A stretch of DNA of 63,952 nt, the filler included, from Platydemus manokwari (taxonomy: Eukaryota): assembly GCA_037951405.1 (NCBI GenBank). It is 6 parts of 6 records of this genome, joined end to end, with 100 filler letters (N's around TTAATTAATTAA, not from the genome) between each part and the next. Parts side by side here need not be neighbours in the genome. Positions count along the whole stretch, not along the records: positions 54,388 to 63,952 come from JBBMOY011231432.1; 5 more parts are not named here. The stretch is one strand, 5' to 3'. Shown here piece after piece: positions 54,463-63,875 of the stretch. The translations under genes were made by a program, and so were the position numbers. Under the pieces are notes generated by a model, which saw only the letters and a program-made list of their open reading frames with translations, had not been told where the DNA came from and did not search any database. Position 1 is the first letter of the stretch. Every line of letters starts with the position of its first letter.

Positions 54463-54988
54463 CAACCAGTGATGAGAATCATTTTGAGTGAAAATTACAA
54501 GGCCGCGAGAATAGATACGTGTTCAAACGTTATGGATCCAGTATTTGGAAGATGGGTGTCGACGGAGGATAAAAAGTGAAGAGCGGATATATTAATATTG
54601 CAGGGCGCTGGAGTAACGGGGAACATAAAATAGTAGGATCTATGCAGCAGAGGACATAGAGAAAGCACGAAAACATATGTTGTTCCCAATACAGCGAGAG
54701 AAGGTAATCATGAATATGGTACAACGAATATTAGGAGGCAGTCCAGACGGAACATTAAATTATGAGGCATTGTTATCAGCAGATCATTTCAATGAAGCAG
54801 TAAAGGGACTGTTTAAAAGTTTATATGGAAGATTTCAGGAAATAGGAGCAATATTTTCCATATTTCTGGGAATATATTATATAGTGGTGATAATAAAAAT
54901 GGTATTTTCATCGCTAATGACGGGGAAAACACTACAAGAGATTTTTGGGTGTTCATGGAAAATACTATGTTGTATATGTCCATCATAA
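54463..54988 (+). pseudogene. C-terminal half of a chuvirus-G/gB-like class III fusion glycoprotein, including the TM region
   Basis: QPVMRIIL..TCSNVMDPVF, RIYAAEDIEKARKHMLFPIQRE (cf. GIY...L..LR.HIMFP.E), LYGRFQEIGAIFSIFLGIYYIVVIIKMVFSSLMTGKTLQEIFGCSWKIL. Confidence 0.82.
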
Positions 54989-55712
54989 GAACGAGCTAGA
55001 ACAAATAAAAGCAGAAAGCAAACAAGCCAGAGGAGGAGGAATGTGGACGATGAACGAATTAGGAATGTATAATCCAATAAGAAGATGGGTGTATGATCAA
55101 CAAATGATGAATCAGGGGTTTTATAACCCTATGATGAAACAAGAAATACCTTCAAATTATCCAGCGGGATATGACGACTGGGAAGTAATGTATGGAGGAA
55201 GAAAAGAGAAGTTATTTGAACAATCAATGTCAGGATATAGAAACATGAACGAGTATTACCCATATACAATGGAAAGGCAGATGATCAACAAAATAAAAGA
55301 CCCGTTAATCAGAAATGTAAAGCAAATATACGCCATACATTCAGCAACAGGCAAAGGACATAGTCCCATAGTAACGGTGTTAATGAACAATAGGCCAGCA
55401 AGAGCCTTAATAGATACAGGAGCAGAGGGATCAATGATTAGAAAGGAACTACTCAATGAATATCAGCAGACAAAGATAAGAAAGGACAAAGATGTTCTCG
55501 TAGGAGCAGGAGGAAAAAGGATTGAGACAGCTGGAAAGGTAACGATAAACATAGCGTTTGGAAATATACAGATAGATCATGAATTTAAGGTAGTAACAGA
55601 AGGATTAAACGACATACTGATAGGAATGAACTTATTAGAACAATTAACGGGAGTAGTTTTGGACGACGTTACAAATATCATACAAGCAAATACCCCAACA
55701 AAAGGACGATAA
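54945..55712 (+). pseudogene. Met/Tyr/Asn-rich linker plus retropepsin aspartic protease
   Basis: VTVLMNNRPARALIDTGAEGSMI (DTG at 55413-55421), flap LVGAGG, DILIGMNLL. Confidence 0.92.
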
Positions 55713-55939
55713 GTTAACAATACAAGAGATAGTTAGATTACTAGCAAGATGTGAAAGTGTATTAATGTTTCCTGTAGAAGCAACCAATGAAACGTTAATG
55801 TTTGAACCACGACAGATAAATGATGAAATTCAAATGAGTTCGATTTTCGCAACAGCACAGGATGGATACTATCCGTTTAGAGTTACTAATTATGGAAATA
55901 ATATCGATACGACACACGGAAGCGATTGGATTCATAAGA

Positions 55940-60192: not shown

Positions 60193-60251
60193 AAGATGAA
60201 AGGTGCGGAGAGAGATGATGAATAAATGAGCAATAAATAATATAATTAATA

Positions 60252-62680
60252 ATGAGTAAATATATGGAGAAAGAAAAGAATAAGATAGTGGAAAAAATGG
60301 CAATATTTTTTAAGTTTGATGAATTACAGGATAATGCATATATAATAGATCAAGGTTTTTCACAGTATGAGCCAGATAATATGTGTGCAATAATTCACAC
60401 CAAGACAATGCCAAAACCACTAGTAAACAATCTGAAGCCAGGACAAAAAACATTGTATGGGGAGGAAGATGAAGCCCTCAACATATGCATGGTGAATAGT
60501 GAGCAAGAAATAAAGACAATGAGACAGAAAAGTGCTCGAGAAGAAATGGAGTTAGTCAAAGAAATACAAAGTAGCAGTAGCACTTATATTGGAAAATATT
60601 CCAGTAAAACCAGCTCTAACAATGCCGATAACTGAGAGAATATTGCCAAAAGTATTAAATGTGCCAGCAACGTCACCAGTATACGTCCCATCAAAAGTGG
60701 TAACGATGCAAGGACATGCTACAAGTAACAAGGATGTTGGATATTTAGGACAATATTTAGTCAATAGGGAAATTGACTATCAGGCCATGGACGAGTTTAA
60801 TAAAAGGAAAAAGACGAAACGTTGTGGAGGTCATGATCCACCAAGGAGAAGGATCAACAAGGGAGCCACGAAAAGCCAGGGCATTTTTTAAATGGAAGTC
60901 TTTGAGATTTCATAGGACAACCATTCCAGAGTTACCATTTACACATGATGTGAAATGGGGAGAATTACCTGTAACAAATAATAGACTTGCATCTAGTGGC
61001 AAGTCAGCCTAGATATCCACATGTGGAAAAATTAAGAATGTTGGAAACGGCGGAAATACGATTTATACTAAATTGAGCCAGATAGGAATGAGAATGGATA
61101 TCTCATGTACAATTATAAAACAAGAGTAAATAAGGAAGAATTATTTGTGGAAGGGAATTAATTAAAGGACTATGAATTATGAGGAAGACGAGTAAATTAT
61201 ATTTATAATGAGTTTGCCAGGAGACGTGGTAGTAGAAACAATGAAGGAATATATTAGACAAAATTTCTTAATGAGAGAACATGTCAATAAACTAAGCATT
61301 ACGCTTTATAATAAAGGAGTAAGACTGAGAAGTAGAGACCTATTAGAACAATACCATTTAAACCGTACAATTTTAGACAATTTAGGAGTTTTAATTAAGT
61401 ATAAAGAACCGGTTGAAAAAGAAATAAGGGAATTATATATAAATGCCAATCAAATAATAGAAGTGGATTTGGATGAAGAAGAAGTTACTCCAGTAACAAA
61501 GAGTAGTGAGGAGAAATCTCCGAAATCAGCAAACTCTAAATCAAGTGAGTTAAACTCCGACGAGGATTTTTTTAAAGGCATTGGGATTGAGAACGAAGAA
61601 AAGAGATAGTATAATGGATATGGTGGAAAGAATGCCAAAGAATCAGCTACAAAAGGAAATAGAAAAGAAATACTTATGTTTGGGGTGTATAGGAAAGCAA
61701 AAACATAAATGTCCAAATAAAGAAAGTATAGAAGAGAAAGCGGAACCACGAGAAGAAATAATCAAACAAATACAAGAAGAGCGAAAAGAGGCATTGGCAC
61801 TAGAAAACAGTAATAGCAAGGAGCAAGAAAGCATGTCAAGGAAAAAAATAGTATATCCATATAGGGAAGGAGAGTGTAATAAAACAATAGAAGAAGAGGA
61901 GGGCGCCATATTAGAGGAGATAAGTGATGAAGAAAAAGATGTAACAGAGCCACCAAGAGAAGAATTAGGAGAGGAAGAGTTGCTGGAAGTTCTGGGAGAA
62001 GAAAATCATGAAAGATATGATAATTATAAAGAACTATTCCAATATTTTGATCAAGAATTATTAAATGAAAGCCAACAAACACATACAGCACAGCAAACCA
62101 ATGCAGAAACCAAAGACAAAGGCGCAGCCACACGAAAACCTAGAGGTAGACCAGTAGGATCAACGAATAAAGCAAAAAATCCAGAACCGACAGGTTACCC
62201 GCAAATGGGGTAGAAGAAGTACCTGTGGAACAACTTTTCAGCATACATCAGGGAATACACTCAAAAAAGGAGACAAGGAAATAGAAAAGATGAGACAATA
62301 TTTGAGAGCAGTAAATAAATTACAATGTACGCTCAGCCGGAATGAACGGGAACAAGTAAATAGATTGAGTAAGCTAACAAAACCAATTAAAAATTCATTA
62401 AAAGAAATGCAACAATGCAATAACAAATAGGAGTTAAAAATAGTGAGGAAGTCATTAAATGAAGAAGAAAAGACAGTGTGGAAAATAGCGGTCACGCTAA
62501 AAACATTTAGTAATCACGTAGATATGGGTATAATAGACATAGACGAAGGAGCAGAAATATTATACGATGAATACGAAGATAGAGTAAACGAGTTAGGAGG
62601 ATGGACCCCAGTAGTTACCACGCAATTAAAAGGAATGAAAAAGCCAGAGCGTGAAAAACCAGTACAAGGAACAGGATTTA
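60252..62680 (+). pseudogene. ORF1 of the retroelement: long frameshifted protein of unknown function (Gag position) with Cys/His cluster, acidic tract and AT-hook
   Basis: Abutting + strand ORFs 60252-60635, 60589-60891, 60773-61012, 61208-61609, 61581-62213, 62443 onward; CLGCIGKQKHKC; RKPRGRPVGSTNK. Confidence 0.6.
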
Positions 62681-63875
62681 CTTTGGCAACAATAGTTCAG
62701 ACGCTATTCGCGATATACGTAATAAGCAATATATGGGGTGTGAATGCTGGAATTAGTGGATATGATTGTAGTAAACCACGGTGGGGGAAGAAATACTCTC
62801 TATTAGATATTGAACAATGCCCAGAGACATATCCAGTAAATATTACACAATCAAGACCAAAGAAAATGTTTGTGTATCAGGAATCTGAGTTTCTATTTGA
62901 AAAAGCAAGGGAATGTAAAATTACATATCAAGAAATGCTTTTCCATTGTTCATACAAGAGAGGAGGATACACGGCATGGTTGCCAGTGCCAGAAAAAGCC
63001 GCATTTGAGAATGAAATTTATAAATATCAAAAGGGATACAAGTAATAGTGTCACCAGGACGAATAAACAGATACACGGTAAATCAAGCAGGATGGTCTAG
63101 TAATGGGGGATATTGTGAAGGTGGAGATTACATGATAGATGGAAAGGTAGTAAAACACGTGGTGGCATATAGACATTATATTATAGAATTGCGAGAATAT
63201 CAAGCTACATTTGATGCAAAAACAAAGAAAATGACCACATGGACGCATTGCGAATATGATAATTCAACATGTGATATAAGTCATCCATACAAATGTCCAT
63301 TAAAGCTGCTCAAAAAGACGGAATTTAGAGAGATTAAGGGGAAAATATTTAAGGAAACTAAGTTCTCTAAGGAATAAAACTTGGATGCACCAACAGAGAC
63401 AGTAGAAATTAGGATGAAAGAAACACCAATAGTGTATATGGCCGATCGGACGAGTGGTGCTAAGAGGTTCGTTCACAAGGGAAAAGATAAGAAATGCGCA
63501 CAGCAGGTCATAGCGACAAATTATAAAGGCATACATCTGAGTAAGAACGAAATAAAAGATGCTAAGACAAATAGATAAACTGGATATCAAGTTATCCTAG
63601 TATTTTAACAACAAGCTTGACTACTTTTACCATCTCAATCAGGGGTATCTAGAGAAAATGTACATGGAAATGATGTTAAAATATTGTAAACTAAGGCTTA
63701 AGATGTTGCAAACACAGTTGGCATTGGCGGTGACAAATCCCGAACTTATAGCCCCGTTAATATTTGATGATAAGGGAACATTCGCTAGAGTAGTGGGAGA
63801 ATTCATTTATACCTTCCAGTGTAAAATATTAAACAACTTATTGGTCAGAAAACATGAATACTGTACCAACGATAT
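62680..63875 (+). pseudogene. Internal signal peptide plus N-terminal half of the chuvirus-G/gB-like glycoprotein
   Basis: TLATIVQTLFAIYVISNIWGVNAG then ISGYDC (GYDC 62758-62769)..YSLLDIEQC, ARECKITY..FHC, GGYCEGGDY, YFNNKLDYFYH, YCKLRLKMLQTQLALAVTNPELIA..GTFARVVGEFIYTFQC..EYCTND; two frameshifts and in-frame stops. Confidence 0.85.

Follow-up and report, generated by a model that had tools for sequence, protein, structure and literature searches.

The region between positions 54,463 and 63,875 of the window, i.e., of the 63,952-nucleotide stretch of joined contigs from Platydemus manokwari (GCA_037951405.1) that was analysed, is very probably a decayed flatworm Ty3/gypsy element, one of multiple copies, with its genes in the order ORF1-env-protease-reverse transcriptase (RT)-RNase H-integrase and its env gene likely split by a Mos1-type mariner. 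It lies on a single contig (54388 onward), a point overlooked in the first-pass annotation. The element is ~9.4 kb long with a coding span of ~8.9 kb. The gene order of the family is ORF1-env-pol, and the local order in the contig is a circular permutation of it, because Mos1-like mariner ends lie on either side of the break. The location of a chuvirus/gB-type env ahead of pol is a real layout that is already in print for planarians. Translation revealed stops or frame changes in every gene; being full of them, the copy is not infectious in its present state, contrary to the earlier description as potentially infectious.

The earlier impression of a non-arthropod host is in line with a kinesin gene at 36003-38183, which is located on a different contig of the window than the retroelement; its 14 best named matches are all from flatworms (365-490 bits), with other animals reaching at most 329 bits.

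Organization of the element

The features are listed in contig order; contig depth, here and below, is no measure of copy number.

54388..54460, strand not assigned: very high-copy repeat end, likely of a Mos1-type mariner (inverted repeat 54433-54460, TA at 54461-54462)
54461..54988, plus strand: C-terminal half of env (pieces 54461-54577 and 54629-54988; PF24664 positions 477-593, E 2e-23; transmembrane segment near 54851)
54921..55712, plus strand: linker and aspartic protease ORF (PF13975, E 1e-11; PF00077, E 1e-7)
55907..56414, plus strand: RT, broken by stops and frame changes (PF00078, E 7e-20)
56387..57055, plus strand: RT connection and RNase H, broken (PF17919, E 1e-7; PF17917)
56983..58536, plus strand: integrase with H2C2 zinc finger, core and C-terminal part, broken (PF17921, E 1e-19; PF00665, E 3e-8)
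58568..59740, plus strand: charged low-complexity extension 3' of the integrase, no family
59790..60180, plus strand: single LTR-like segment, ends approximate and 5' end uncertain (contig depth rises from 13 to >100 near 59790)
60182..60192, plus strand: primer binding site (PBS)-like motif starting with TGG, from the sequence
60252..62676, plus strand: ORF1 in broken pieces, from translation (sub-cutoff DUF7659 match, E 5e-4)
62263..62634, plus strand: helical domain just 5' of the env signal segment, with one internal stop (GGW motif and position common to four relatives)
62677..63876, plus strand: N-terminal part of env (PF24664 positions 9-90, 137-208 and 310-401; stops, two frame changes)
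63876..63952, strand not assigned: other end of the mariner-like repeat (inverted repeat begins 3 bases in; no TA flank)

The envelope glycoprotein

Both env halves match one and the same family, PF24664, at profile positions 9-401 and 477-593, respectively, and the matches are collinear in four env pieces (E 6e-8, 5e-6, 1e-12 and 2e-23). This bears out the assignment as a chuvirus/gB-type glycoprotein and answers the concern that the two halves might belong to different protein families. All motifs on which that assignment had been based are present in the sequence, with GYDC..SLLD..C found in the ORF 62431-63045, C.L...L...LA...P and GE.I....C in the ORF 63601-63921, and IY...D....R.H..FP together with a hydrophobic segment in the ORF 54629-54988. 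The latter segment (Kyte-Doolittle 2.42 at 54851) confirms the predicted membrane-spanning C-terminus ending at 54988. By tblastn, the N-terminal part is collinear with 14 of the 14 env relatives tried. On the relative P0169, of which residues 548-584 and 619-695 map onto the C-terminal half (54461..54988), the two halves adjoin within ~10 codons (residues 537 and 548). The position of the N-terminal half behind ORF1 was recognized correctly in the first-pass annotation, but it does not constitute a separate ORF, as the signal-like segment at 62677 shares its frame with the end of ORF1.

Judged from these sequence features, the glycoprotein is a putative class III fusogen; a profile of the env relatives gave no match at E<=1 among solved structures. 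An index-free search with an env piece returned 30 matches, 24 of which contain PF24664, the others being two unrelated repeat proteins and four short pieces devoid of this domain. The word-indexed search with the env piece yielded 138 candidates and no match. Pattern searches gave 233 hits for the env piece in metagenome contigs and 128 for the integrase alignment pattern in viral contigs, none of which was confirmed in either case.

The flanking mariner-like repeat

Both env halves end at a perfect inverted repeat of 25 bases (54433-54457 and 63876-63900), which had been overlooked and was matched in none of 100 shuffles. At the left end, 21 of 28 bases are the same, by hand count, as in the 28-base inverted repeat printed for Mos1 of Drosophila mauritiana (PMC4344528), and the TA flank is present as well; the shortened right end begins at the Mos1 first-strand cut position, 3 bases inside the repeat. 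The repeat differs from Mos1 in being seen only as the ~75 bases of each end that fall within the window, with the transposase outside. Summed contig depth amounts to ~36,600 in the left and ~40,900 in the right end bin; the remaining 28 bins range from 56 to 1,543. Taken by its sequence, the flanking repeat is likely a Mos1-type mariner. The inverted-repeat pattern had no exact match in viral and metagenome contigs. A reading of the two inverted repeats as the termini of a single large transposon with the retroelement as its cargo was rejected on account of their orientation, with the Mos1-like outer ends facing the retroelement; the transposon body, therefore, lies outside the contig.

The env-protease junction and pol

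As had been noted, the protease ORF (54921-55712) overlaps the end of the glycoprotein, in another frame and by 68 bases, without LTR or spacer, and it is followed by RT, RNase H and integrase. This order, with an H2C2 zinc finger in the integrase, is that of Ty3/gypsy elements (Metaviridae) according to Pfam and tblastn, and the matches of pol to gypsy-type profiles and relatives uphold the original assignment. The RT is 49% identical to P0157, with two stops in the HSP, and the nearest integrases are 47-49% identical. In a tree without named Schmidtea or Burro sequences, the integrase groups with the env-before-pol proteins P0157 and P0162 at a support of 94/87, which is under the starred level of the tool. 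There was no Pfam match in 58568-59212, and none of 36 stored relatives matched the post-integrase extension.

Since the overlapping env and protease ORFs of the present copy are read in different frames, and two sibling contigs fit only from 54980, so that the copy is unlike its siblings near the junction, one might consider the junction a local chimera or deletion in a family with the order gag-pol-env. This explanation can practically be dismissed. Among 15 env relatives scanned, pol domains come after env in one chain in eight and before env in none; P0157, P0159 and P0162 contain env, RT, RNase H and integrase all in a single chain. Furthermore, a 1187-base contig of run X1, representing a separate copy that is ~85% alike, has the env N-terminal half and then the protease ORF, and GAG-ENV-POL is the only order reported for flatworm errantiviruses in the sections of PMC13524379 used here. 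The junction is, thus, not unique to this locus, and env between ORF1 and pol is a family trait, as it is in the GAG-ENV-POL errantiviruses. Another contig of run X1 joins the env halves directly (63876 into 54461); this run may be the window's own sample, in which the bridging contigs are other copies.

The LTR-like segment and the permuted arrangement

Only one LTR-like segment is found in the contig; it includes TATAAA at 59807 and AATAAA at 59922-60113. The window has no tRNA gene for comparison with the PBS-like motif, and no purine tract adjoins the apparent 5' end of the segment. The permuted order may be present in the DNA itself, either as a tandem duplication via unequal LTR-LTR crossover after the mariner insertion or as a one-LTR circle that recombined in at a mariner copy. 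We regard this tentatively as possible; the grading refers to the arrangement only, and what remains goes to collapse of two LTRs during assembly. In a decayed copy two LTRs should have diverged, which would make collapse harder; in addition, pieces with the same sequence as the window form a tiling path that extends from behind the integrase into the LTR-like segment (positions 59400-59827, at a depth of 12-13), and no loose end is listed at its apparent 5' end. On the other hand, no contig spans the segment, and one contig, at least 96% alike, exits into unlike sequence behind 60172, resembling a 3' or solo LTR. The assembly is, moreover, in fragments of ~10 kb, and the present contig begins inside a high-copy repeat. 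If the permutation were real DNA, this would alter the history of the locus only, not the identity of the element.

ORF1 and the probable Bcl-2-like domain

The domain at 62263..62634 is likely a decayed Bcl-2-like domain. With a profile built from relatives only it was the best tile, albeit at E 0.076; the model of the region reached pLDDT 52, and Foldseek found no match under E 3.6. In relatives, a Bcl-2-like domain just before env is detected by Pfam at E 1e-3 to 0.2 in three of eight, and that of P0151 folds like Bcl-xL. A domain of this kind has already been reported for Burro (PMC6431247). A ubiquitin-like look of 61196-61450, noticed by eye, received no support from Pfam and PDB.

Neither a capsid nor a zinc knuckle was detected in the fragmented ORF1 by Pfam or with a Gag profile built from two sequences, which does find other gypsy Gags; the first ORF1 piece had no PDB relative, and ORF1 had no match to 36 stored relatives. 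Together with integrases that are at best 47-49% identical, this would fit a compact planarian family of enveloped retroelements apart from Burro and the published flatworm GAG-ENV-POL errantiviruses, possessing a gB-type fusogen and a putatively anti-apoptotic Bcl-2-like domain, lacking a capsid of its own, and moving from cell to cell by helper capsids or vesicles. We consider such a lineage improbable, and a family of this kind improbable to the same degree. An env block shares 31 of 62 residues, counted by hand, with Smed_errantivirus_3, which passed its authors' HHpred GAG check (PMC13524379), and the coding span of ~8.9 kb is close to the ~8.5 kb implied for that element (3 kb flanks subtracted). 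The short ORF1 pieces reduce search sensitivity, and contigs join or leave at 60249-60261, where siblings thus differ and the present copy has possibly been shortened. The sole outcome surprising to specialists would be a truly capsid-less family.

Comparison with known elements

GAG-ENV-POL errantiviruses with gB-type env have been described from flatworms, nematodes and bryozoans (Chary and Hayashi 2026, PMC13524379). The present element shares with Smed_errantivirus_1-6 of that study the Ty3/gypsy pol, a gB/chuvirus-type env before pol, the flatworm host, multiple copies and a similar coding span, and by eye its env most resembles a Schmidtea element listed there, with the 31 identical residues falling in the domain I-II block of Smed_errantivirus_3. 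It differs in being decayed, in its mariner-like split and in the undetected capsid; furthermore, the word "Bcl-2" does not occur in the text of PMC13524379, whereas the present element has a likely Bcl-2-like domain.

Burro/GYPSM1, a giant gypsy-like element of dugesiid planarians, carries a Bcl-2-like domain, env and protease in one frame (Jurka 2007; Grohme 2018; both via PMC6431247), and its env has mononegavirus-like homology (Arkhipova and Yushenova 2019, PMC6431247). Likenesses are the planarian host, an env that precedes the protease and shares its frame with the end of ORF1, and the likely BCL2-like domain just 5' of env; decayed Burro fragments were also reported earlier (PMC6431247). 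In contrast, Burro/GYPSM1 exceeds 30 kb, with an internal region of up to 25 kb and an ORF of ~5000 amino acids, compared with ~9.4 kb here, and its single env-protease frame is opposed to different frames in the present decayed copy. Of the Burro Gag and cargo domains, no Pfam match to retrotrans_gag, BIR, MATH or ankyrin and no CCHC knuckle pattern was found in the present element.

Noncanonical nematode ERVs are metaviruses with an RNA-virus glycoprotein before pol (Sacco et al. 2022, cited in PMC13524379); they are likened here by layout, with nematodes as different hosts. The mosquito BEL/Pao elements with a Chuviridae-like glycoprotein (Dezordi 2020) share the broad glycoprotein type but represent another LTR superfamily, the present pol being gypsy-type. 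The order with chuvirus/gB-type env is published for planarians (PMC6431247, section 7; PMC13524379, sections 5 and 14 and supplementary file 1). Two proposals of the first-pass annotation are wrong or lack support, namely that of a possibly undescribed lineage and the statement that capture of chuvirus-like glycoproteins is best known in Bel/Pao elements.

Proposed mechanism and history

Intact members would encode one long polyprotein comprising ORF1, the Bcl-2-like domain, env and pol, as in several relatives, which signal peptidase and the element-encoded protease would process. The glycoprotein, acting as a class III fusogen, may allow entry of particles into adjacent cells; the Bcl-2-like domain may delay apoptosis of the producing cell. 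In the present copy, a mariner would have inserted at a TA within env, with the probable loss, at one junction, of ~10 codons together with three bases from a mariner end. The contig would accordingly read mariner end, env C-terminal half, pol, LTR, ORF1, env N-terminal half and mariner start, a permutation that may have arisen either from the merging of two LTRs in assembly or from tandem duplication of the copy.

Summarizing, the locus illustrates cleanly how insertion of a mariner and the merging of LTRs may leave a draft assembly with a permuted retroelement, and the copy extends the flatworm GAG-ENV-POL group by a further decayed representative. The shared Bcl-2-like domain before env, seen in several relatives, ties compact members to Burro, a link of modest use; it suggests that the Bcl-2-env module is older and more widespread than the giant Burro elements.

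Sequence Context

The window is built of contigs of about 10 kb separated by spacers of 100 bases. As it is a concatenation, neighbourhood across the spacers carries no meaning. GC content is 20-35%, and the retroelement occupies the last contig, from 54388 to the window end.

10270-10369, 22085-22184, 34022-34121, 43434-43533 and 54288-54387: N spacers, 100 bases each, with six-frame stop core
36003-38183, minus strand: uninterrupted kinesin ORF, KIFC3/KIN-14-like, 726 codons, on a contig other than that of the retroelement

The 14 best named matches of the kinesin ORF are all from flatworms (365-490 bits), other animals reaching at most 329 bits; two further matches are 82% and 79% identical. 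Taken with the GC content, the likely host is a free-living planarian. Also present in the window are a dispersed repeat pair, 71% alike (13077-13667 and 27237-27871), a tandem array of a 40-base unit (28456-28895) and an AT-rich array of a 39-base unit (32191-32402). On the minus strand, a non-LTR RT-like piece and an upstream protease-like piece were recognized by eye (562-942 and 1338-1865), the latter presumably an Ulp1-type protease, arranged as in NeSL-type elements; likewise by eye, the minus-strand ORF 8833-9333 shows multiple CCHC zinc knuckles together with an RGG stretch, and we take it to be CNBP-like.

The Divided Envelope Gene

The glycoprotein motifs quoted in the first-pass annotation are found in the sequence as quoted. 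Its proposal of two halves of one glycoprotein is borne out by Pfam, where four env pieces match the Monjiviricetes fusion glycoprotein family PF24664 collinearly; against solved structures, the env profile gave no match.

62431-63921: env N-part, PF24664 profile positions 9-90, 137-208 and 310-401
54629-54988: env C-part, PF24664 profile positions 477-593

On the related protein P0169, the last residue of the N-part is 537 (63876) and the first of the C-part is 548 (54460), so that the halves abut within about 10 codons. The protease ORF overlapping the env end, followed by RT, RNase H and integrase, is seen downstream as described, and the env signal-like segment at 62677 shares its frame with the ORF1 end. 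Stops or frame changes are present in every gene, with 10 stops across the nine main HSPs against the related protein P0157 and many more in ORF1; this copy cannot be functional by itself, and the suggestion of a potentially infectious virus does not apply to it.

Both env halves are terminated by a perfect inverted repeat of 25 bases, which occurs twice in the window and in none of 100 shuffles. The left copy plus the next three bases is identical to the inverted repeat of the mariner transposon Mos1 at 21 of 28 positions by hand count (PMC4344528). The left copy is adjoined by TA, the right one is not; the latter begins three bases in, at 63876, and three bases inside the inverted repeat is the position of the first cut of Mos1 (PMC4344528), suggestive of an abortive cut at one end only, adjacent bases being lost during its repair. 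As it is the outer ends of the repeats that point towards the retroelement, the body of the transposon is located beyond the contig on either side. Summed depth of contigs from sequencing run X1, which is not copy number, is 36,600 and 40,900 in the end bins and 56-1,543 in the other 28; the flanking repeat is far more abundant than the rest of the contig. One X1 contig connects 63876 to 54461, and in a second one (1187 bases) the env N-part is followed by the protease ORF; X1 is possibly the window's own sample, its bridging contigs nevertheless being other copies. A single mariner insertion in env, with small adjacent loss, would thus be envisaged.

Env before Pol in the Family

An index-free protein search with one env piece as query yielded 30 proteins, 24 of which contain PF24664. 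Among the 15 scanned (long proteins and best matches, the remaining 15 being short or unrelated), protease, RT, RNase H or integrase follows env in the same chain in eight and precedes it in none. P0157 maps onto the window in precisely the permuted order, and the window integrase groups with the related proteins P0157, P0162 and P0001-P0004 in a 32-row tree built without named references (support 94/87, below the starred level). From these three lines it follows that env before pol is inherited, a family trait and not a junction unique to this locus.

The related pol chains P0003, P0004 and P0157 end in a long post-integrase extension with a hydrophobic, membrane-like segment, and several relatives contain two to four protease-like repeats. 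P0157 is an animal-type retroelement polyprotein, yet its source files it under a Flavobacteriaceae metagenome bin, likely through bin contamination.

LTR-Like Segment and Permuted Order

About 59790-60180: single LTR-like segment between integrase and ORF1, delimited by a depth change and a diverging contig
From 60182: PBS-like motif

Contig depth climbs near 59790, and one contig diverges into dissimilar sequence behind 60172. No purine tract was found beside the apparent 5' end of the segment, and no contig spans it. A single unspanned segment fits two LTRs merged during assembly, which is the origin of the permuted order that we are inclined to accept; it also fits a real tandem copy or a re-inserted circle, for which a reasonable chance exists.

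The Region Preceding Env

Directly before the env signal segment, weak Pfam Bcl-2 matches occur in three of eight relatives (E 1e-3, 0.055 and 0.2). A five-row profile of this domain, its rows picked after the Bcl-2 hint was known, matches Bcl-xL at E 4e-4, ranked behind two designed coiled coils. For the domain model of the relative P0151 (pLDDT 75), Bcl-2-family structures make up 46 of 46 among the matches listed (top probability 1.00, TM 0.54, best E 0.05). The corresponding region of the window has the GGW motif and its position in common with the relatives, scores E 0.076 against a relatives-only profile and gives a model of pLDDT 52 with BAK as top row at E 3.6; it is likely a decayed Bcl-2-like domain. 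Such a domain stands immediately before env in P0151, P0155, P0167 and P0169, in P0151 about 640 residues into the chain with a predicted fold like Bcl-xL.

Neither capsid nor zinc knuckle was found in ORF1 by Pfam and profile search. Its first piece, 60246-60632, matches DUF7659 (PF24692) below cutoff (E 5e-4), and contigs of sibling copies enter or branch off at 60249-60261.

Relation to Published Elements and Proposed Mechanism

In the portion of PMC6431247 available, planarian Burro/GYPSM1 holds, in this order and in one frame, a BCL2-like domain, an env with mononegavirus homology and protease. It is presented as the first instance in which env lies between gag and pol, and is noted as decayed fragments in another planarian. 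The accessible part of PMC13524379 describes flatworm, nematode and bryozoan errantiviruses with env of gB type only and the order GAG-ENV-POL, six Schmidtea elements with up to 215 copies, and ENV-POL matches counted in two other planarian genomes. Of these six, Smed_errantivirus_3 is by eye the nearest to the window env (31 of 62 residues identical in an ungapped block by hand count; sequences from the same part). The element would work like a compact Burro, but differs in size and Gag cargo and is for these reasons not classed as Burro; its best placement is among the flatworm GAG-ENV-POL gB-type errantiviruses, with the reservation that no capsid was found and that one LTR-like segment was seen. 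The feature is real and was correctly read in the first-pass annotation, except that its kind, there considered a possible undescribed lineage, is already described in the available portions of both papers, and the element is a new, decayed member of it.

LTR elements are transcribed from the LTR, reverse transcribed from a tRNA primer and integrated. Of the mechanism, anatomy and decay of the element are directly observed. Judging from the relatives and the consulted part of PMC6431247, one polyprotein would be made; its env portion, situated between ORF1 and pol, would be inserted into the membrane and freed by signal peptidase and protease. Env, a predicted class III fusogen, would serve cell-to-cell spread, and the Bcl-2-like domain would delay apoptosis. 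In the literature as far as retrieved, Bcl-2 was found paired with such retroelements for Burro only; the module of Bcl-2-like domain and env may extend beyond the giant Burro elements.
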